A DNA stretch of 64,000 nucleotides from Escherichia phage vB_EcoM-E33. This document shows positions 1,909 to 48,041 of the stretch, piece by piece. The first letter of the stretch is position 1. Every line of letters starts with the position of its first letter. The stretch lies in the sequence record OL780484.1. The stretch is one strand, 5' to 3'. Position numbers and translations under genes: made by a program. Below the pieces are notes generated by a model, which was not told the DNA's origin, made no database searches, and was given only the letters and a program-made list of their open reading frames with translations.

Positions 1909-2293
1909 TGAATTTATCGCAGAGAATGTAATTCCTGCATCTAAAGAACTTTTGGCGATGTTTGAATCTGAAGAGTTCACTGAAGAACTGAATGAGAACC
2001 TGACCCAGGCCACTCCTCAGGTTATTCGCGTTCGTAATGCCCTTCAGACAGGCATGCAGGCTCGTGTATCTAAGACTATGAAGCTGGCATTCACCACTTC
2101 TAAAAATGAAGACTATGGTGATGGTATTGCAATGAACACTGGGCAGTATTATGTTGAGTGGAATGGTGAAACCGGTACTGCTAAGATTCGCCAAACGAGA
2201 GCAGCGGGTGGCAAAATGTTGGACCTTAAACTGAACGTTAAAGAGAAAGACGTCGCGGCTTTGTTCAAGAATTGGATGAAGACTTACAAATAA
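1895..2293 (+). CDS. internal head protein (Ip) with capsid targeting sequence
   Basis: N-terminus [10 protein letters not shown] matches the T4 internal-protein capsid targeting sequence; 132 aa. Confidence 0.65.
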
Positions 2294-2343
2294 GTTTACA
2301 TCTCCTGTAGTCATGATACTATAGACCTATCAACTACAGGAGA
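2294..2343 (+). promoter_or_regulatory. early promoter (GTTTAC 2294-2299, TACTAT 2317-2322) with 10-bp inverted repeat TCTCCTGTAG/CTACAGGAGA covering the denV SD
   Basis: -35/-10 spacing 17 with TG extended -10; arms at 2301-2310 and 2334-2343. Confidence 0.6.
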
Positions 2344-2349
2344 TTAAAA

Positions 2350-2766
2350 ATGACTCGTATCAACCTTACCTTAGTATCTGAATTGGCTGACCAACACTTA
2401 ATGGCTGAATATCGTGAATTACCACGTGTTTTCGGTGCAGTTCGTAAGCATGTTGCTAATGGTAAACGTGTCCGTGATTTCAAAATCAGTCCTACTTTTA
2501 TCCTTGGCACAGGCCATGTTACATTCTTTTACGATAAGCTTGAATTTTTACGTAAGCGACAAATTGAGCTTATAGCCGAATGTTTAAAACGTGGTTTTAA
2601 TATCAAGGATACTACTGTCCAGGACATTAGTGACATTCCTCAGGAATTCCGTGGTGACTATACTCCACACGAAGCTTCTATTGCTATATCTCAGGCCCGT
2701 TTGGACGAAAAAATTGCACAACGCTCTACCTGGTACAAACATTACGGCAAGGCTATTTACGCTTAA
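2350..2766 (+). CDS. denV: endonuclease V (pyrimidine dimer DNA glycosylase)
   Basis: 138 aa; near-identical to remembered T4 endonuclease V ([28 protein letters not shown]...). Confidence 0.95.
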
Positions 2767-2808
2767 TTAAATCCGTGATAGAATACTTCTATCAACTTAA
2801 GGAATAAT

Positions 2809-3168
2809 ATGAAAACTTACCAACAATTTATTACTGAATCTACTCAGCGCATTAACGAAGCTATGTCTCCTGAACAATTGGCTAAGGCCAAAGAAGGGCT
2901 GAACCCATCTGAAGTTTTTAAAGTTACAGGTAAAGACTTTGCTTCCATGGCCACTAACCAGAGCTTGGCTAAAGAACTTAAATCTAAATCTAACTTCATT
3001 CATGCTACATGGAATGGTGATTCTCTTACTTCAATAAGTGTGTACAATAAAAAAGGTCTCCTTAAGAGTTCTTATGGCGCGGATGCCATCCGTGTTTCTA
3101 AATCAGATTGGCATAAAAACACTACTAAAGCAGAAAAACCTCATAACCCGGCACTAGACCATCTTTAA
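2809..3168 (+). CDS. internal head protein (Ip) with capsid targeting sequence
   Basis: N-terminus MKTYQQFITEST; 119 aa; first ~36 nt shared with the next gene. Confidence 0.65.
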   Translation: MKTYQQFITESTQRINEAMSPEQLAKAKEGLNPSEVFKVTGKDFASMATNQSLAKELKSKSNFIHATWNGDSLTSISVYNKKGLLKSSYGADAIRVSKSDWHKNTTKAEKPHNPALDHL

Positions 3169-3176
3169 GGCTTAAT

Positions 3177-3434
3177 ATGAAAACTTACCAAGAATTTATT
3201 ACAGAATCCACTTTAGTTTCTAAACGTTGGAATATGATTGTAAACGTTAAACCTTCCGGCACTGAAGTTTCTATGGCCGACCCTAATGATGACGAACTTG
3301 AGCACGCTTTTAGCTCTAAAGAAACTGACGAGAAAGTGGTTAAGCAACTGGTTGCTGATGCAGATCAACTTCGTAAAGTAGCAGATGTTGTTAAGCTGTT
3401 TACTAAGAAAGGTTTTAAACACGAAGAACGTTAA
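3177..3434 (+). CDS. internal head protein (Ip) with capsid targeting sequence
   Basis: N-terminus MKTYQEFITEST; 85 aa. Confidence 0.65.
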   Translation: MKTYQEFITESTLVSKRWNMIVNVKPSGTEVSMADPNDDELEHAFSSKETDEKVVKQLVADADQLRKVADVVKLFTKKGFKHEER

Positions 3435-3584
3435 TTAGCATTTTTAAATGGGAGCAACCTGGACCTCACAATTCTGTGAGGGACTCCCGCCAACCTGTAA
3501 TAAGGTCGAGCCCAAGTGCGGTAATGGGTAAATGCAGAAAGGGACGAATTAATGTGCCAAGGAACGGCCCTCAAAGGAAATACT
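3435..3584 (+). other. structured non-coding spacer (nested hairpins GGGAG..CCTCAC..GTGAGG..CTCCC)
   Basis: About 150 nt without a convincing ORF; nested inverted repeats; no cloverleaf recognised. Confidence 0.3.
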
Positions 3585-4112
3585 ATGAAATTTTTAACTC
3601 CCATTTATCTAACCTTAATGCACGCCTTCGCTGAACGCGCCATTGAACGTTTAGACTCAGACCAATATACCTGGTATGAACCTGCTTCAAGAATGCAAGA
3701 GTTTGGTACTCTTCGACTTGATGGCGGACGCCAAACAGGTAAAACAAGTGCCCTTGCTCAGTTCGCCGCTGATTGGGTTTCCAAGGGTAATGATGTGATT
3801 GTTATGTCGAGTTCTTCGCATCGCTCGCGAGAAATTTGTAATGTAATAAAACAGGTTTCTAAGGCACACCCACATCTCCAAGTCGAAGGTCCTGGTTTTG
3901 TTGTCTATGATACTGTGCGCAGTTTCCTTGATGAAGACAATTTCCATAAGTATCGTGGACTATCTGTTACTCGATTATTGATTATTATCGAAGAGCCAAT
4001 GCGCCTTCCAGCGATGGATAAGTTCTATGAAGCTTACCAGGTAATGATTAATAAATTTATGTGCCAAGGCGACAAGCCTTTGCCTCTGTTCTTTGTGATA
4101 GGAATGCAATGA
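3585..4112 (+). CDS. hypothetical protein with P-loop-like motif (GGRQTGKTSA)
   Basis: ORF 3552-4112; start placed at ATG 3585 after AAGGAAA SD. Confidence 0.45.
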   Translation: MKFLTPIYLTLMHAFAERAIERLDSDQYTWYEPASRMQEFGTLRLDGGRQTGKTSALAQFAADWVSKGNDVIVMSSSSHRSREICNVIKQVSKAHPHLQVEGPGFVVYDTVRSFLDEDNFHKYRGLSVTRLLIIIEEPMRLPAMDKFYEAYQVMINKFMCQGDKPLPLFFVIGMQ

Positions 4113-10619: not shown

Positions 10620-11078
10620 ATGATTATCAATGCAAACTCTTGGCATGTTAAACTACATGACCGTTTTTATGCCAGTTATTCACGTCCGCGCTCATTATGC
10701 GCATACTTCTGGAAAATGGTTTGGGCGTGCTTTATATGTTCTGTGCTTGCAGGTAGTACTATTTTCGGCTTAACTGTTGCAGGTGCCGGTATATTGGAGC
10801 AGTTCTTTGTATTGAGTACTCCTGTTGGTTTAAGTTTAGGTTTTATTTTAGGACTGGTTACACTAGCTCTTATTCTAGCGGTAGCCGTTGGTATTGTGTA
10901 TTGTATAATGAATTTATGGTCCTGGTATGATTTACGTAAAGAAGAAAAGGAATGGCTACTAATTAAAGCTAAACGTGAAGGAAAGGAAATTAAAGAAAAT
11001 ATCGTTATTCAATATATCAAAGCTCGTAAATCTAAGGTCTGCCCTGTAATCCACTTCGAGAACAAAACAAACCCATAA
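10620..11078 (+). CDS. hypothetical multi-pass membrane protein
   Basis: 152 aa with several hydrophobic helices. Confidence 0.5.
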   Translation: MIINANSWHVKLHDRFYASYSRPRSLCAYFWKMVWACFICSVLAGSTIFGLTVAGAGILEQFFVLSTPVGLSLGFILGLVTLALILAVAVGIVYCIMNLWSWYDLRKEEKEWLLIKAKREGKEIKENIVIQYIKARKSKVCPVIHFENKTNP

Positions 11079-11842
11079 TGAATTATACCAAGCTTTATGA
11101 TAGTCTAATCCAAAGAGGTAAACTTAGAGGATTAGACAAATCCAAATTAAATTTTTATACAGAGTCCCATCATATACTCCCATCATGTATTGGTGGGAGT
11201 GATGAACCTAATAATTTAGTTCTGTTGACAGCCAGAGAACATTTTATAGCACACTGGCTTCTAGCTAGAATTCATTCTGATTCTTCTGGACTAATTTATG
11301 CTTGGTGGTCGTTTTATAGCTTCGGTGAGGATTCTCTAGGAAGAAATCTTAAACTAACTTCTAGAGGATACCAATTAGTTAGAGAAAAATTTTCAGAAAT
11401 TCATTCAAATGCGATGAAAGAAATATGGAAGACTGAAGAGTATAGAAATAAACGTTCTATAACTATGAGTCTACCGGAAATAAAAGATAAAATGTCTGCC
11501 GCTCAAATAGAAGCTCAAAACCGTCCTGAAGTTAAAGAGAAAATTTCTAAAGCTATTAAAGAAGCATTTAAACGCCCTGATGTTAGAGAAAGGCATTCTA
11601 ATGCTGTTAAGAAATCTCTAAATAATCCGGAAACTAAAAAGAGGCAATCTGATGCTTCTAAAGCAAAGCAAAGAATAGGAAAACATTGGCAAGATTATGA
11701 TTTGCTTTATTCTTTATGGGTTAAATTAAATAGGCCTAAGCGTGGGGCTTTTGGTACTTATATTAGTAAATTAGGATATCCCAAATCTAACTACCAACGT
11801 TTAATTATGCAATTTATTGAAGACTATGAAAGAGGTGAATAA
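11078..11842 (+). CDS. Mob-type HNH homing endonuclease
   Basis: HNH motif ESHHILPSCIGGSDEPNNLVLLTAREH; repeated basic NUMOD-like C-terminal motifs; paralog of 46719-47375; T4 mobD-like position. Confidence 0.7.
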   Translation: MNYTKLYDSLIQRGKLRGLDKSKLNFYTESHHILPSCIGGSDEPNNLVLLTAREHFIAHWLLARIHSDSSGLIYAWWSFYSFGEDSLGRNLKLTSRGYQLVREKFSEIHSNAMKEIWKTEEYRNKRSITMSLPEIKDKMSAAQIEAQNRPEVKEKISKAIKEAFKRPDVRERHSNAVKKSLNNPETKKRQSDASKAKQRIGKHWQDYDLLYSLWVKLNRPKRGAFGTYISKLGYPKSNYQRLIMQFIEDYERGE

Positions 11843-15465: not shown

Positions 15466-16308
15466 ATGTCACAGGCAATTAATCAAATTCGTTCTGAAGT
15501 TAAAAAAGTTGTTAAATTTGGTCGTATTCCGAGTTCTAAAGAAGTGGTTGAAAAGGTTCTATATATGATGTGGGACAAGTTCAATGTTTGTACTGTTAAA
15601 GATGACTTCACTAAAATCTTTGATAAGACCAGGTCGTTTACCTTAGAAGACCGGGTCATGAAAACTCTTCGTAAAACAGGTATGTTGTCTCGTGCTAATG
15701 CCAAAATTATTCTTAAAAATTATAACAAAGGCTACGACCTCTATGGTCGTTTAATCCCGGCGATGTCATTTGACGAAGTGGTTCAAGACCTTCATGCCAA
15801 CCAACGACGTCTACTAGCACTAGGTGCTCGCCTTGCAAAAGGTCAAGATAAACAAATGACCTTTAAGACTAATGGTTCAGGTGATTGGATTATCTTTAGT
15901 ATTGTTAACCACCCCAGAAATGAAAATGAGTATACCATTTCAACTTTTAGTGGTTGTCAATATGACAACTGGAAGTTCCATCTCCGATTAGCCTTGTCCG
16001 AATTAGAACAGCACGGTGTTCTTAGTTTTGGTGATGCCGAAACTGGGGTGGGTCAGCGTATTAAACTTTATAAAATTAAAGACCTGGCTGAAGAGCATTC
16101 AGAACAAGCTCCTAAACCGGAACCTGTGCCAGTGCGCAGCAATGAGAAGCACCAAGCTCAAATCGAGTATTTTAGCAATTTGCTTACTTGTCTTAATGTT
16201 ACAATTCAACAACAAGATGATGAGATTTTCCGACTCTCTGGTCTGAATGCTAAAGCCAAGGCTGAACGTCAAAAATATATCGATATCCTAAATCTTCTTA
16301 AGGATTAA
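15466..16308 (+). CDS. hypothetical protein with helical C-terminal tail
   Basis: 280-aa ORF; TIR ACTGAGGAAATTATTATGTCACA shared with 23290 gene. Confidence 0.5.
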   Translation: MSQAINQIRSEVKKVVKFGRIPSSKEVVEKVLYMMWDKFNVCTVKDDFTKIFDKTRSFTLEDRVMKTLRKTGMLSRANAKIILKNYNKGYDLYGRLIPAMSFDEVVQDLHANQRRLLALGARLAKGQDKQMTFKTNGSGDWIIFSIVNHPRNENEYTISTFSGCQYDNWKFHLRLALSELEQHGVLSFGDAETGVGQRIKLYKIKDLAEEHSEQAPKPEPVPVRSNEKHQAQIEYFSNLLTCLNVTIQQQDDEIFRLSGLNAKAKAERQKYIDILNLLKD

Positions 16309-17454: not shown

Positions 17455-18465
17455 ATGACTCGTACTGAATACATCAATGCCTTTACTACGTATATCACTA
17501 CCAACACCCCTCCGTTAACCCCATACGAGGTAATAGTTTCTAATATCAATAAATGGGTCGACCAAATTGATGATGCATTATCGCGCTGTTTCAAAGCTGA
17601 AATCGAAAAGATTGCAGGCCGTTTGTGCATTCATGATATCATTAAAACATTTAAAGGTTCTCGACTGCTTTCGCGCCTGGTCAATAAGGACATCCTTTCT
17701 GAGTTCGGTAAAGAGAAATATCCAGGTTCCAACCGTGTTGTTAGCTACAAATGGTTTGGTGATACCATAAAAGGTTATATCAAAATTAAAGGTATGGACC
17801 CTAATAGTTTATTTCCGCAACGTTGGGTTAGCGAATTCAAGGCTAACTCTGCATTAATTCTCAAAGCGGCCTCTAAAACTATAGTTTCCGGTGATTGTCG
17901 TACTATTCACCCGATGGCTAATTGCATGATTAAAACAAATAGTTATAAAGGAAAAGCTATTATTTCTGTTATTTGGTCACCTAATAGGAAACCTAAAGAT
18001 GATGCGGAAGTTGTAAAGTATCAAGATATTGCTTACGATACCTTGAATACTATCGAACAAGCTTTAGCTCTGATGGATACCGTAGAGAAATATGAGACCC
18101 AAGAAGTTAAACACCACTTAGGCTGGAAAGGATATGAGGTCTTAGTAACAGTCCGTGAAATCAAATGTACCGTTCCAAAAACTGATGCTGAAATTTACAA
18201 AGAAAAATGTGAGGAAATTGTGAACACTGATAAAGAGCCTGCTACATTAGAAGATTTGATTAACGACTTGAACAGCCCTATCATGGCCCCTACACCAATT
18301 ACTAAATCCAAGTTACCGGAAGTCGTTGCCTTGGAAAAAGCGTATAAAGACGCCCTTGCTATCAACAAAAAACTGACTGGCCAATATACTGCTGCCAAGA
18401 AACTTTGGGAAGAGTCTACCAATCGTTTAGACCGTCTTGAACAGGCTCTGGAGCTGCTGAAATGA
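17455..18465 (+). CDS. hypothetical protein with helical C-terminal tail
   Basis: 336-aa ORF. Confidence 0.5.
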   Translation: MTRTEYINAFTTYITTNTPPLTPYEVIVSNINKWVDQIDDALSRCFKAEIEKIAGRLCIHDIIKTFKGSRLLSRLVNKDILSEFGKEKYPGSNRVVSYKWFGDTIKGYIKIKGMDPNSLFPQRWVSEFKANSALILKAASKTIVSGDCRTIHPMANCMIKTNSYKGKAIISVIWSPNRKPKDDAEVVKYQDIAYDTLNTIEQALALMDTVEKYETQEVKHHLGWKGYEVLVTVREIKCTVPKTDAEIYKEKCEEIVNTDKEPATLEDLINDLNSPIMAPTPITKSKLPEVVALEKAYKDALAINKKLTGQYTAAKKLWEESTNRLDRLEQALELLK

Positions 18466-45430: not shown

Positions 45431-46459
45431 ATGTCATATGTCGATAGAGAATTTGCTGTACGTGCCTTGAATTACCAACCTAAATTCAGACAAGTAACCG
45501 GTAGTGATTTTAAATTAAACTGCCGTTGTCGTGTATGTGGCGACTCCCTAAAAGATGAGAACAAAGCTCGTTTTTGGGCCTATCCGGCCAATGACGGCTC
45601 CGTAATGCTGCACTGTTTTAACTGTGACTATTCAGCAGGAATTAAGAAGTATCTATACGAATATGAGCCTGATTTATATCGAGAATATATTCTTGAGAAA
45701 CATAAAGAGCAATCGTTCGGGAGACAAGCTGCACCTAAGGTGGAGATATCAGAAAAGATTAAAGCCAAGATGCCTGTCATCGAAAAGCTTAATTTCTGTG
45801 AACGTCTGGATAGAATGCCAAAGGACCATCCTATTATCAAATATGTAACACTACGTTGCATTCCTGAAAACAAATGGAATCGCTTATGGTTTACTAAAGA
45901 ATGGCCGGCATTGGTGAACTCTGTCAATCCAGGGACCTATTCTAAAGAAATGCCTGAGCCTCGTTTGGTTATTCCAATTTTCAATAAGAATAAACAAATT
46001 GAAAGTTTTCAGGGTCGAGCCTTACGTAAAGATGCTCCACAAAAATATATTACAATAAAAGCTCATGACCAAGCTACAAAAATATATGGAATGGATACAG
46101 TTGACGAACGTCAGTTGGTGTGGGTAATGGAAGGCCCTATTGACTCTTTGTTTGTTCCGAATGCAATAGCAATTACTGGCGGGTCGTTGGACTTGGCTAT
46201 GGTTCCATGTAAAGAAACTCGTGCCTGGGTAATGGACAATGAACCCCGCCATCCTGACACAATTAAGCGTATGCAACGATTAGTTGATGCTGGCGAAAGG
46301 GTTCTATTCTGGGACAAGGCTCCATGGCCTTCTAAAGATATAAATGATATGATTATGAAAGATAAAGCTGATATAAATGATGTACTGGCATATATGAAAG
46401 CTAATATAGCCCAAGGTCTAATGGCTAAAATGAGACTTTCAAAATATTCTAAAATTTAG
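45431..46459 (+). CDS. 61: DNA primase gp61
   Basis: 342 aa; zinc-ribbon CRCRVCGDS...CFNCDY and EPDLYREYI match remembered T4 primase. Confidence 0.9.
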   Translation: MSYVDREFAVRALNYQPKFRQVTGSDFKLNCRCRVCGDSLKDENKARFWAYPANDGSVMLHCFNCDYSAGIKKYLYEYEPDLYREYILEKHKEQSFGRQAAPKVEISEKIKAKMPVIEKLNFCERLDRMPKDHPIIKYVTLRCIPENKWNRLWFTKEWPALVNSVNPGTYSKEMPEPRLVIPIFNKNKQIESFQGRALRKDAPQKYITIKAHDQATKIYGMDTVDERQLVWVMEGPIDSLFVPNAIAITGGSLDLAMVPCKETRAWVMDNEPRHPDTIKRMQRLVDAGERVLFWDKAPWPSKDINDMIMKDKADINDVLAYMKANIAQGLMAKMRLSKYSKI

Positions 46460-46656
46460 GCAGGAACTCCGCTAAAGAATCCAATTATGCTTAATACGTG
46501 TTCCATTGTAACCGCTGGTAAAATTATCCCTTGGCTAGCGGCTACAGGGACTACTAGAAGATTCCAAAGGAATACGTCTAGCGCAAGAAAACCTAACATC
46601 ATTTTCTTGTCTTTCTTTTCGGCCAATTTCCAGATTTGGTAAAAAATACTGCCCAT
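46456..46656 (-). CDS. small membrane protein (minus strand)
   Basis: 66 aa; AGGAGG SD 5 nt upstream of ATG on minus strand; hydrophobic; lies in an otherwise intergenic gap. Confidence 0.5.
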   Translation of the reverse strand: MGSIFYQIWKLAEKKDKKMMLGFLALDVFLWNLLVVPVAASQGIILPAVTMEHVLSIIGFFSGVPA

Positions 46657-46677
46657 GTTATCCTCCTGTTAAATTAA

Positions 46678-46685
46678 TATTTATA
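46678..46685 (-). promoter_or_regulatory. T4-type late promoter TATAAATA (minus strand)
   Basis: Reverse complement of TATTTATA, ~10 nt upstream of the SD of the minus-strand gene. Confidence 0.4.
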
Positions 46686-46688
46686 ACT

Positions 46689-46712
46689 TGCTTTACAAAT
46701 TAATGATACAAT
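46689..46712 (+). promoter_or_regulatory. possible MotA-type middle promoter (TGCTTTA-11-TACAAT)
   Basis: Mot box 46689-46695, -10 46707-46712; very short leader before ATG 46719. Confidence 0.3.
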
Positions 46713-46718
46713 TATCCC

Positions 46719-47375
46719 ATGAATTACGAAAAAATATACCAGGAATTAATATCTAAAGGAAAATTAAGAGGTTCTAAGCGGTCTTTATCATATTATACGG
46801 AAGAACACCATGTTATACCTAGATGTATGAATGGTTCTGATGATAAAAACAATTTAGTTGCTTTATTGCCAAGAGAACACTTTGTAGCTCATAGGCTTTT
46901 AACAAAAATATATCCCGAAGTAAAAGGTCTACATTATGCTGTTAATTTAATGAGATATAATAAAGGAGTTAAATTAACTAGTAGAACTATAGCCACGTTA
47001 AGAGAAAATAACGCTAAAGCATTTTCAGGAAAAAATAACCCGATGTTTGGTAAACCTTCCTGGATTAGAGGGATGAAAACTCCTGAAGAAACTAAAGCCA
47101 AAATGCGCCTGGCTCATAAAGATAAAATTATATCTGATGAAGCCAAGGCCAATATGAGTAAAGCTAGAAAAGGAAGATTTAGTGGTAAAGATTCCCCTAG
47201 ATATGGTTTGCCGAATCCTAGGCGTGGAGAAATATGGAATAGTTACGATATGCTTTACGAATTATGGGTTTACAATAATAAACCTAAACGCACCAAATTT
47301 AATAAAATAGCTGTTGATAATGGATATCCTGATATTTGTTATCGACGAATGATAGAAAACTTTAATAGGAAATAA
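46719..47375 (+). CDS. Mob-type HNH homing endonuclease
   Basis: HNH motif EEHHVIPRCMNGSDDKNNLVALLPREH; NUMOD3-like GKNNPMFGK; AT-rich; paralog of 11078-11842. Confidence 0.7.
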   Translation: MNYEKIYQELISKGKLRGSKRSLSYYTEEHHVIPRCMNGSDDKNNLVALLPREHFVAHRLLTKIYPEVKGLHYAVNLMRYNKGVKLTSRTIATLRENNAKAFSGKNNPMFGKPSWIRGMKTPEETKAKMRLAHKDKIISDEAKANMSKARKGRFSGKDSPRYGLPNPRRGEIWNSYDMLYELWVYNNKPKRTKFNKIAVDNGYPDICYRRMIENFNRK

Positions 47376-47379
47376 TATA

Positions 47380-47901
47380 ATGGCATTTTTTAACGAATGT
47401 AGTGGTTTGATTTCTGGTGTTGATAAAGCTGAGGAAGCTTATTTTAATGCTCTGATTCATGAAGATAAAGACCCTCTGCAGGTTATGCTTGATATGCAGA
47501 AATCATTACAGGTCCGTTTGGCTACTGAAAAATCTGAATTTAACTCTAACCCCGATGAACTGGCTACTGCAGGTCAAGTTGTCGATTGGCTTCGCAACCA
47601 GAAAGATTATATTGATGACGAATTCCGTGAACTGTTGACTTCTCTTGGTGGCATGAGTAATGGTGAGAAAGCCGCATCTAGCGTCTGGAAGCCTTGGAAA
47701 GCTCAGCACGGTGAATTCCGTAACCGTCGTATTGACGAACTCTCTCCTGAAGACCAGCTTGAAATTAAATTCGAGATGATTGATATTCTGCACTTTGTTC
47801 TGAATATGTTCCAAGGTCTTGGTCTGTCAGCCGAAGAAATCTTTAAGTTGTATTACCTGAAAAACGCTGAGAACTTTGCTCGTCAAGACCGAGGTTATTA
47901 A
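47380..47901 (+). CDS. 56: dCTP pyrophosphatase gp56 (MazG-like all-alpha NTP-PPase)
   Basis: 173 aa; DDEFRELL and EMIDILHFVL resemble MazG-type motifs; T4-like position next to 61. Confidence 0.6.
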   Translation: MAFFNECSGLISGVDKAEEAYFNALIHEDKDPLQVMLDMQKSLQVRLATEKSEFNSNPDELATAGQVVDWLRNQKDYIDDEFRELLTSLGGMSNGEKAASSVWKPWKAQHGEFRNRRIDELSPEDQLEIKFEMIDILHFVLNMFQGLGLSAEEIFKLYYLKNAENFARQDRGY

Positions 47902-48041
47902 TGCCTCGTTTAAATAAACGTCAACTAAAAAAGTTGAATAAGAAAAGGGCGAAAGCCTTTACTGCCTTATTACGTAATGAAATAACTAAAGAAATAGACC
48001 AAGAGATTATTGAACAACTTTGGAAAGCCGCCAAATTGTAA
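47901..48041 (+). CDS. small basic hypothetical protein (46 aa)
   Basis: TAATG overlap with gp56 stop; not in ORF track. Confidence 0.3.
   Translation: MPRLNKRQLKKLNKKRAKAFTALLRNEITKEIDQEIIEQLWKAAKL

Follow-up and report, generated by a model that had tools for sequence, protein, structure and literature searches.

The window, by which we mean the whole 64,000-nt stretch of DNA that was analysed, is of the Dhakavirus genome type (T4-type, JS98/IME08-like phage). Between its primase gene 61 and its gene 56 lie a small minus-strand gene, which we call ORF66, and a plus-strand endonuclease gene, mob, together with the following features.

45431 to 46459, plus strand: gene 61, DNA primase (ORF list and Pfam DNAG_N match; annotated as primase in IME08, JS98 and others)
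46456 to 46656, minus strand: ORF66, a 66-aa small membrane-protein gene (PHROG 2024 and synteny)
46662 to 46667, minus strand: AGGAGG Shine-Dalgarno sequence of ORF66, read from the sequence, 5 nt upstream of its ATG
46678 to 46685, minus strand: T4-type late-promoter box TATAAATA of ORF66 (motif match), with a predicted transcript start at about 46672
46689 to 46712, plus strand: middle-promoter-like site, consisting of the MotA box TGCTTTA (46689-46695), 11 nt and the -10 hexamer TACAAT (46707-46712)
46719 to 47375, plus strand: mob, free-standing Mob-family HNH homing endonuclease gene of 218 aa (Pfam, PHROG 655, similarity to T4 MobE)
46794 to 46895, plus strand: HNH catalytic motif of mob, residues 26-59, YTEEHHVIPRCMNGSDDKNNLVALLPREHFVAHR (alignment with McrA, PDB 6ghc, and T4 MobE)
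47016 to 47054, plus strand: best-scoring NUMOD3 DNA-binding motif of mob, residues 100-112 (Pfam PF07460, 28.6 bits, cut-off 20.4)
47251 to 47276, plus strand: second MotA-box and -10-like site, at the 3' end of mob (pattern match), a candidate gene-56 middle promoter
47367 to 47372, plus strand: AGGAAA, the gene-56 ribosome-binding site (aligned junctions of JS98, C6, T4 and RZ)
47380 to 47901, plus strand: gene 56, dCTPase/dUTPase, the right flank (Pfam dUTPase_2 and annotations)
47385 to 47412, plus strand: variant tract, nt 6-33 of gene 56, that accompanies mob (mismatch positions in the junction alignments)

Gene 61 forms the left flank; its stop codon and that of ORF66 overlap. ORF66 and mob are separated by a shared 62-bp divergent promoter region. 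All elements described in the first-pass annotation, among them the minus-strand 66-aa gene with its AGGAGG sequence and its late-promoter motif, were found where it had placed them. At the right junction the AGGAAA site of gene 56 is kept and overlaps the last mob codons, and the insertion point of mob falls between the gene-56 middle promoter, past its -10 hexamer, and the gene-56 ribosome-binding site.

Judged by its sequence, the reading frame at 46719-47375 is free-standing and encodes a Mob-family HNH homing endonuclease. Its product is 100% identical to the "MobE" of IME08 (YP_003734176.1) and 46% identical to T4 MobE over 129 aa (E 2e-30), and it is matched by PHROG 655, 'homing endonuclease' (2.1e-54). 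The Pfam NUMOD3 match lies above its cut-off, and the Pfam HNH match reaches 18.4 bits, under the 21.4-bit cut-off. The segments EEHHVIP…DKNNLV…REHFVAH align with the HNH of McrA and T4 MobE, and the conserved His, Asn and His of the N-terminal HNH (beta-beta-alpha-metal) motif are present. By analogy, we infer that the product has endonuclease activity. The proposed paralogy with the Mob ORF at 11078-11842 was borne out at 36% identity (E 5e-42). Shorter protein entries are also found in the database cluster of the mob product.

The gene is carried by about 8 of about 40 Dhakaviruses. It is present in IME08, ABTNLS3, LQ5, UGJNEcP3/4, VR5 and ESCO10 and absent from JS98, JS10, C6, WG01, QL01 and AnYang, the flanks of which are up to 100% identical to the window. 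At least 80% of the 61-56 query was covered by 11 of the 517 matching records, and the other relatives among the matches listed matched it in two pieces, without mob. The mob-less WG01 is 98-100% identical to the window in most 100-nt windows over about 1.2 kb left of the junction, and in all of those across gene 61, and equals it through ORF66 up to position 46684. The mob-less C6 is 98-100% identical per 100-nt window from about nt 51-61 of gene 56 to the gene end. Differences between genomes with and without mob start past the ORF66 promoter box, at about 46685. Because VR5 carries mob between flanks that are only 88-90% identical to the window, the presence of mob does not track the relatedness of the flanks. 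At the same site, Tequatrovirus IME340, Mosigvirus SSE1 and Klebsiella phage Mexia carry homologues whose proteins are 76-78% identical (the type-A homologues). A scan of IMG/VR for close mob relatives yielded 2 further close loci only, one of which, vB_EcoM_005, was left out because its junction assembly is apparently scrambled.

Because the content of the 61-56 interval is not the same in all close relatives and the presence of mob varies, the insertion part of the earlier reading stands. The mob-less gene-56 leader TAACTTAyTAATGAATTGAAAGGAAAA is common to Dhakaviruses, T4 and RZ, and the empty site is thus the ancestral state. We considered the ATGAATTGA within this leader as a remnant of a deleted mob and rejected it: the sequence is kept in the leaders of T4, RZ, IME340 and SSE1 and stands upstream of the endonuclease gene in type-A genomes, which identifies it as ancestral leader sequence.

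Composition and divergence also support the first-pass view of the HNH gene as a homing-endonuclease-type insertion that is absent from most close relatives. The GC content of mob is 32.1% versus 39.1% for the window, and 200-nt windows of mob and the intergenic spacer have GC fractions of 0.285-0.32. The 'AT-rich block' described earlier therefore comprises mob and the spacer but not ORF66, whose GC content of 40.3% is near the window average. Between the window and IME08, pS is 0.038 for mob and 0.17-0.18 for genes 61 and 56, and all five differences between the two mob copies (5/5) are synonymous. Against more distant copies, dN/dS of mob is 0.1-0.2, as expected under purifying selection, and the reading frame is intact with its HNH residues kept. 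The mob copies of IME340 and SSE1 differ by a pS of 0.037. Because synonymous divergence of mob is about 4.5-fold below that of its flanks, recent spread is favoured over long vertical residence. The comparative data fit a recent gain of mob by homing, and loss from single lineages by recombination with mob-less phages may also have occurred.

The start of gene 56 varies together with mob. Between the window and C6, gene-56 identity is 78% for nt 1-60 and 98.7% for nt 61-522, and the mismatches of the 5' tract all lie within 47385-47412. The window-type 45 nt of the gene-56 start are 100% identical in exactly 8 records, which are those with a Mob that is at least 99% identical; this linkage of the 5' tract to mob (8/8 records) concerns carriers that are all close relatives. 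The TGTAGT at gene-56 codons 7-8 is common to all genomes with mob, in four genera. We consider nt 6-33 of gene 56 a probable co-conversion, target-site or immunity polymorphism. T4 MobE nicks the 5' region of its downstream gene, in a stretch that is polymorphic between phages with and without mobE (PMC2790892), and this target is comparable to nt 6-33 of gene 56 in the window. Because the 5' end of gene 56 is variable among mob-less phages too, part of the variant tract could be ordinary allelic mosaicism that is linked to mob by descent.

As noted in the first-pass annotation, the TGCTTTA-11-TACAAT motif precedes mob with almost no leader: the ATG lies 6 nt past the -10 hexamer, and mob is without a Shine-Dalgarno sequence. 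Translation may thus begin on a leaderless message. By position, the site at 46689-46712 is the homologue of the middle promoter of gene 56 in JS98 and T4, and its T4 counterpart is the oriA primer promoter according to the T4 annotation. Matches to TGCTTNA-N11-13-TANNNT occur 13 times in the window versus 3.6 expected by chance. About 100 nt ahead of gene 56, the embedded MotA-type site (47251-47276) is a possible middle promoter for that gene. It is found in IME08-type mob (codons DMLYELW) and in none of VR5 and the type-A homologues (DALYELW); in the paralogous ORF at 11078-11842, a pattern match lies at the homologous codons, 11703-11727. Free-standing homing endonuclease genes of T4 are often without signals for translation initiation and contain embedded promoters (PMC2988022). 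No hairpin sequestering the mob start, as in I-TevI and Aeh1 mobE, was found, and the 151-nt region folds less stably than shuffled versions of it (z = +1.9). Intrinsic terminators were predicted neither on the plus strand inside mob nor on the minus strand after ORF66; the sole predicted terminator, on the minus strand at 47115-47095, is within chance expectation.

In its protein product and its locus (61/ORF66 to 56), the gene shows no difference from IME08 mobE. VR5 MobE is 89% identical and shares the locus, but the JS98-type upstream promoter sequence is kept and the internal MotA-box match is missing. Our literature search found no experimental characterisation of IME08 or VR5 MobE. T4 mobE and the window mob are both free-standing and without an obvious translation-initiation region, and the N-terminal HNH regions of their products are similar. 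T4 mobE, however, lies between nrdA and nrdB, with nrdB as its target, and not between 61/ORF66 and 56. Its 141-aa product lacks the C-terminal half with NUMOD3 repeats of the window protein. The T4 gene has no promoter of its own, overlaps the stop codon of nrdA and has a terminator inside it, whereas the window mob abuts a middle promoter and has no plus-strand terminator predicted within it. Because of these differences in locus, length and expression, we regard the window mob as a paralog of T4 mobE, and its 'mobE' label as denoting similarity, not orthology.

The type-A homologues lie, as in the window, between the ORF66/dam.1 gene and gene 56, with TGTAGT at gene-56 codons 7-8 downstream. 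They start with GTG and use the gene-56 Shine-Dalgarno sequence (…ATGAATTGAAAGGATATAT followed directly by GTGAATTAC…), and a AAGGAAAA ribosome-binding site is recreated at their 3' end. The Dhakavirus mob, unlike these homologues, has an ATG start and no Shine-Dalgarno sequence, a form that would be expected from a deletion between two TGAATT repeats.

ORF66 is a resident ancestral Tevenvirinae gene and not part of the mob insertion. It is matched by PHROG 2024 over residues 1-64 (E 5.8e-28), as is an ORF of T4 (4.6e-31), and it adjoins the primase gene in 121 phage records, the T4-type version doing so in 693 records. In the mob-less JS98, C6, WG01, QL01 and AnYang it is 95-100% identical and occupies the same place, its stop codon again overlapping the gene 61 stop, and many other Tevenvirinae genera have it in this position too. 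Selection has evidently preserved the protein, with pN/pS of about 0.1-0.15 in 22 pairwise comparisons and 26 invariant columns across 19 homologues. Its late-promoter box TATAAATA is the single occurrence of this sequence on the minus strand of the 64-kb window. The AGGAGG is kept in T4, JS98, RZ and IME340, and the ATAAATA core of the box is kept in homologues, while the first base varies (T, A, G and C in the window, JS98, T4 and RZ, respectively). Position -13 of late promoters is poorly conserved (PMC1524935).

The T4 homologue is called "dam.1" in T4T and is absent from the T4 RefSeq annotation. This gene (T4T HM137666), RB32ORF030w and RB69ORF029w encode PHROG 2024 proteins of 65-66 aa, like ORF66, and have the same convergent position, with stops overlapping the gene 61 stop. 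Common to the dam.1-type genes and ORF66 are an upstream ATAAATATTAATTTAA-AGGAGGATA and the protein core LWN..PVA..G..P.VT. In the window, in T4 and in other genera alike, the PHROG 2024 gene is convergent with the primase gene, overlaps its stop and has its own NATAAATA box and AGGAGG. BLASTP aligned T4 dam.1 with ORF66 at 40% identity, over the central 25 residues only. Because Gapriverviruses have both subtypes in tandem, ORF66 and dam.1 may be paralogs rather than strict orthologs.

We predict that ORF66 is a late-promoter-driven gene for a small inner-membrane protein. The AlphaFold2 model (mean pLDDT 72) has helices at residues 2-11, 14-41 and 51-62, and the predicted topology places a basic N-terminus in the cytoplasm, a single helix across the membrane and the conserved motif 'PVAAsQGxxLPxVTxEH' in the periplasm. 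No homologue of known function was found, and Pfam and NCBIfam gave no matches for ORF66. A profile search of 1.8 billion representatives returned 7 proteins, namely 6 small family members or fragments and 1 tail-fibre repeat protein, and in BFVD, Foldseek retrieved nothing beyond family members and weak matches with a holin label. For a possible holin role, the support consists of the predicted transmembrane helix and one BFVD homologue labelled 'Holin' (Foldseek E 0.05); Pfam and NCBIfam gave no holin match, the gene stands outside any lysis cassette, and T4-type phages have a holin, T, already. Nothing relevant to 'dam.1' or to ribosome profiling of small T4 ORFs was found in the literature. 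Our tentative suggestion, made with low confidence, is an accessory role in the late envelope or in lysis.

We conclude, with a probability of roughly 0.85, that two independent features stand side by side at this locus, a homing mob gene in the gene-56 leader and the ancestral ORF66. On the model of T4 MobE, a mob-less relative infecting the same cell would have its DNA nicked or cut by Mob near the gene-56 5' end, and recombinational repair from the genome with mob would copy in mob and a short flanking tract. The copied tract would consist of the variant promoter segment (about 46685-46716) and gene-56 nt 6-33, and its polymorphisms, together with the split leader, would shield the carrier genome from self-cleavage. 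Because mob has no Shine-Dalgarno sequence and its ATG lies 6 nt past the -10 hexamer, its expression would be weak, from a leaderless message or from read-through transcripts only. Gene 56 would be expressed by read-through, possibly supplemented by the MotA-type promoter embedded at 47251-47276, and ORF66 would be transcribed from its own late promoter, convergent with gene 61.

A more far-reaching version, which we consider doubtful, has two parts: ORF66/dam.1 would be a late membrane protein that is nearly universal in T-even-type phages and has been overlooked, and the invading mob would have rewired both neighbouring genes. The protein may then serve the late envelope programme, for example in lysis timing, lysis inhibition or superinfection exclusion. 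In the IME08 lineage, mob may have turned the ORF66 box into the perfect consensus TATAAATA, captured the gene-56/oriA middle promoter for a leaderless mob mRNA and supplied gene 56 with a new internal MotA promoter.

It is unlikely that mob is ancestral in Dhakaviruses and was repeatedly lost, being perhaps immobile and retained for its position or for a gene-56 promoter. In favour of this view, homing endonuclease genes commonly decay once fixed, shorter entries occur in the database cluster, and the embedded MotA-type site would be a reason to keep the gene, a proposal that has been made for segG, mobB and mobC (PMC2988022). However, the empty-site leader is conserved in Dhakaviruses, T4 and RZ, the synonymous divergence of mob is far below that of its flanks, and copies are near-identical across genera, as IME340 and SSE1 illustrate. 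The intact reading frame, its low dN/dS and the preserved HNH residues also speak against it.

We judge it very improbable that Mob is mainly a phage-versus-phage exclusion nuclease, directed at gene 56/oriA of competitors, with its own spread as a side effect. The mob site does coincide with the region of oriA and the gene-56 promoter in T4, in a heavily mosaic interval. Belle et al. in 2002 reportedly traced the localized exclusion of T2 gene-56 markers to T4 SegF, which is encoded beside gene 56. Exclusion is, however, mechanistically the same event as homing and does not constitute a separate entity.

The suggestion in the first-pass annotation that the homing endonuclease brought ORF66 along as an oppositely oriented passenger in a composite cassette is hardly credible, since, despite the adjacency of the two genes across the shared 62-bp promoter region and the change of the first base of the ORF66 box at the IME08-type junction from AATAAATA (JS98) to TATAAATA (window), ORF66 is nearly or fully identical in mob-less Dhakaviruses, keeps its position in other genera and T4, has native GC content in contrast to mob, and is contained in the stretch over which the mob-less WG01 equals the window.

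The mob gene was already annotated in IME08, and the finding is real but ordinary; its value lies chiefly in annotation, and current understanding of homing endonucleases is unchanged by the locus. To call the gene 'mobE' is misleading, as it is not a T4 mobE ortholog but a Mob paralog specific to its site in the 61-56 interval, and ORF66 is a real and conserved gene, predicted to be late, that is missing from the T4 reference annotation. The locus would be a clean natural case of homing without an intron, with very short co-conversion tracts, and one endonuclease lineage is found there at one site in four genera. Because the tracts are short and the site is the same in four genera, it would offer a convenient system for mapping a Mob target site.

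The 61-56-soc interval is strongly mosaic. In agreement with the first-pass annotation, T4 has no mob between genes 61 and 56; it has dam there and segF after gene 56, RZ has another HNH gene, and AnYang also has segF. T4 dam and SegF, a GIY-YIG/HNH hybrid, belong to protein families other than that of mob, and because such accessory or mobile genes share the interval with mob, we regard it as an insertion hot spot. A 46-aa Tequatrovirus-like ORF is located 3' of gene 56 in the window; a similarity test of this ORF as a segF remnant found none. Their insertion points within the interval differ from that of mob: dam is found between dam.1 and the promoter of gene 56, and both segF and the segF-like gene of AnYang-type Dhakavirus follow gene 56.

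The interval from the primase gene (gene 61) to the dCTPase gene (gene 56) contains four ORFs, all of them where the first-pass annotation had placed them.

45431-46459, plus strand: primase (gene 61), left neighbour
46456-46656, minus strand: ORF66, small membrane-protein gene (66 aa)
46719-47375, plus strand: mob, HNH/NUMOD3 protein (218 aa)
47380-47901, plus strand: dCTPase (gene 56), right neighbour

Across this interval (45431-47901), the Dhakavirus matches ABTNLS3 (a Salmonella phage), LQ5 and IME08 are 98.7, 98.4 and 97.4% identical, respectively. Its description as an AT-rich block holds for mob (GC 32.1%) and the spacer but not for ORF66 (40.3%), the window having 39.1%. T4 indeed lacks a mob gene at this junction and has dam between genes 61 and 56 and segF after gene 56.

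Judged by genome comparison, mob is a polymorphic insertion. At least 80% coverage of the interval was reached by 11 of the 517 matching records, including IME08, ABTNLS3, LQ5, UGJNEcP3/4, VR5 and ESCO10; among the matches listed, the remaining close relatives gave a two-piece match that skipped mob, and the distance from the primase gene to gene 56 is ~290 bp in JS98, C6, WG01 and AnYang. JS98 and JS10 were listed without homing endonuclease genes in a 2010 review (PMC2993671). In a comparison by sliding 100-nt windows with WG01 and C6, which both lack mob, WG01 showed 98-100% identity in each 100-nt window for ~1.2 kb up to the junction and C6 showed 98-100% identity in gene 56 from about nucleotide 51 to the gene end. 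Because WG01 and C6 lack mob yet are near-identical and VR5 carries mob yet has flanks just 88-90% identical to the window, mob presence does not track flank relatedness. The absence of mob from close relatives and the mosaic flanks bear out the proposed homing-endonuclease insertion, whereas the suggestion that ORF66 is its oppositely oriented passenger fails, as ORF66 is also present, 95-100% identical, in Dhakaviruses lacking mob.

At the left junction, homology to genomes without mob runs through …TTAAATTAATATTTAT and ends at 46684; at the right junction, it restarts around AGGAAATAATATAATGGC, at the ribosome-binding site of gene 56. VR5 has the minimal insertion, in which the JS98-type promoter TCGCTTTAAT…TATAATTATC is kept and followed directly by CC-ATG of mob; therefore, mob lies downstream of the -10 hexamer of the ancestral middle promoter of gene 56 and upstream of that gene's Shine-Dalgarno sequence, with most of the leader replaced. 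Because the leader of genomes without mob (TAACTTAyTAATGAATTGAAAGGAAAA) is common to T4, the Gaprivervirus RZ and Dhakaviruses, the empty site is ancestral. In T4, oriA with its primer transcript is annotated at the gene-56 leader/promoter position. IME08-type genomes, including the window, have a different promoter version in the 30 nt upstream of mob, and through this swap the first base of the ORF66 late-promoter box differs (TATAAATA in the window, AATAAATA in JS98).

The middle-promoter-like motif reported before mob, TGCTTTA-11 nt-TACAAT, was found at 46689-46712, with the mob ATG 6 nt past the -10 hexamer; the window holds 13 motifs of this class, versus 3.6 expected. We found no Shine-Dalgarno sequence upstream of the mob ATG, no sequestering hairpin at the mob start (z = +1.9), no plus-strand late promoter near mob and no plus-strand terminator inside it. 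The free-standing endonuclease genes of T4 are known to have embedded promoters and translation signals that are weak or missing (PMC2988022). The type-A homologues, Mob proteins of 76-78% identity encoded at the same site in ~58 records (Tequatrovirus IME340, Mosigvirus SSE1, Klebsiella phage Mexia), have a GTG start behind the gene-56 Shine-Dalgarno sequence (…ATGAATTGAAAGGATATAT|GTGAATTAC…), and loss of the DNA between the two TGAATT repeats would yield precisely the Dhakavirus mob start ATGAATTAC. A second MotA-type match (MotA box plus -10-like element) at 47251-47276 (plus strand), inside mob near its 3′ end, is made by the codons DMLYELW and may be a promoter driving gene 56. The second Mob HNH gene at 11078-11842 (plus strand), confirmed as a paralog of mob (36% identity, E 5e-42), has a MotA-type match at the homologous codons (D-M/L-L-Y-x-L-W; 11703-11727, plus strand), likewise near the 3′ end; VR5 and the type-A homologues (DALYELW) have none there. 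The matches in both paralogs are possible embedded middle promoters for downstream genes.

Compared with the copies in IME08 or UGJNEcP3, mob of the window has five differences, all synonymous (pS 0.038), and pS for genes 61 and 56 is 0.17-0.18. The dN/dS of mob is 0.1-0.2 against VR5 and the type-A homologues, the HNH residues of Mob are intact, and the endonuclease copies of IME340 and SSE1 have a pS of merely 0.037 despite the different genera. Low divergence, purifying dN/dS and cross-genus copies are patterns expected of a horizontally moving, functionally maintained element. Its motif, its similarity and the polymorphic, free-standing nature of its gene make Mob a member of the Mob family, and the protein annotated as ‘MobE’ in IME08 is identical to it. 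T4 mobE, however, lies between nrdA and nrdB and not at the 61-56 junction, and mob is not its ortholog. The finding is real, explained and already in databases; its residual value is modest and consists of annotation corrections and a neat natural case of homing without an intron, in which the conversion tracts are very short.

In T4, the MobE nick falls in the 5′ region of the downstream gene, in a stretch whose sequence differs between phages with and without mobE (PMC2790892). Gene 56 of the window differs from that of the nearest relatives without mob at 47385-47387, 47399-47408 and 47412 (nucleotides 6-33) and past this tract is nearly identical to that of C6. Exactly 8 records match window-type nucleotides 1-45 of gene 56 at 100% identity, the same 8 that have an at least 99% identical Mob, although these carriers are close relatives and the gene-56 5′ end is variable among phages without mob too. 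Codons 7-8 read TGTAGT in all mob-carrying genomes examined (four genera) and TGy-TCn or TGy-GCn in the examined genomes without mob. By analogy with T4 MobE, the probable target, which Mob would recognise, is the leader plus 5′ end of gene 56 in phages lacking mob; the variant tract would be co-converted with mob and protective.

Across the genomes compared, ORF66 is a resident gene. A member of PHROG 2024 annotated as hypothetical in many genomes, it adjoins the primase gene in 121 phage records that span many genera. The signals claimed for it are present, with AGGAGG 5 nt upstream of the ATG and TATAAATA further upstream, the latter being the sole minus-strand occurrence in the entire 64 kb. 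The T4 counterpart, a 66-aa ORF that is likewise convergent with gene 61 and overlaps its stop codon (17738-17938 of the record; plus strand, 2739-2939 of the T4 stretch L005), is unannotated in NC_000866, ‘dam.1’ in T4T and RB32ORF030w or RB69ORF029w elsewhere; it matches PHROG 2024 at 4.6e-31, and T4-type homologues occur in 693 phage records. In the T4 RefSeq record, dam and gene 61 are 310 bp apart; this unannotated gap holds the ORF, with AGGAGG and GATAAATA upstream. ATAAATATTAATTTAA-AGGAGGATA is kept upstream between T4 and the window. The box varies in its first base, as late promoters usually do at position -13 (PMC1524935). pN/pS is ~0.1-0.15, 19 homologues share 26 invariant columns, and the family is restricted to T4-like phages (7 of 1.8 billion representatives). 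In the AlphaFold2 model (pLDDT 72), a short helix at the N-terminus is followed by a long one (14-41) and a C-terminal one (51-62), with a KKDKK cluster towards the N-terminal side. The protein would therefore probably have a cytoplasmic N-terminus and a single transmembrane helix, with the conserved motif PVAAsQGxxLPxVTxEH on the outside. We found no known function for any family member and propose, at low confidence, that the role is a late accessory one related to the envelope. Because no minus-strand terminator was found downstream of ORF66, its late transcript may, speculatively, continue into gene 61 as antisense RNA.

The family profile weakly matches, at ORF66 residues 36-50 (~46507-46551, minus strand), the 1433-aa tail-fibre protein P0034 through PF22337 repeats (‘PLSAsQGxxLQN’ versus ‘PVAASQGIILPAVT’ in ORF66); ORF66 itself has no PF22337 match in Pfam, and the likeness is probably a chance resemblance amplified by repeats. 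Gapriverviruses carry T4-type and Dhaka-type small membrane genes in tandem (VR25, 15497-15894; RZ, 2249-3375 of stretch L007). In RZ, a different 249-aa HNH gene directly follows the primase gene, beside a truncated Dhaka-type copy that keeps only residues corresponding to 28-66.

The second Mob gene (254 aa, GC 32.9%) was found in no Dhakavirus record; the nearest relatives ABTNLS3 and LQ5 gave a two-piece match (72-73% coverage), and elsewhere it occurs only in the Gaprivervirus VR26 (annotated mobD) and in TH40, at ~86% nucleotide identity. The insertion was thus not seen in any other member of the genus in the collection, which suggests cross-genus transfer. In the Shigella phage SSE1, one annotated 1173-nt ‘homing endonuclease’ CDS (2501-3673 of stretch L020) spans the HNH gene and gene 56, the HNH frame reading …IENFIRKENNMPHFNECS and running on into gene 56, which is either a true fusion or a one-base sequencing error. 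A very basic 46-aa ORF (47901-48041, plus strand) starts inside the gene-56 stop codon (TAATG) and matches PHROG 14392; it occupies the segF position of T4 and AnYang and has no similarity to SegF. Among Dhakaviruses only ABTNLS3 shares it, and Tequatroviruses, wV7 and T4_ev151 among them, are 95-96% identical to it in nucleotides. Its position is a further sign that the 56-soc junction is a cross-genus mosaic hot spot.
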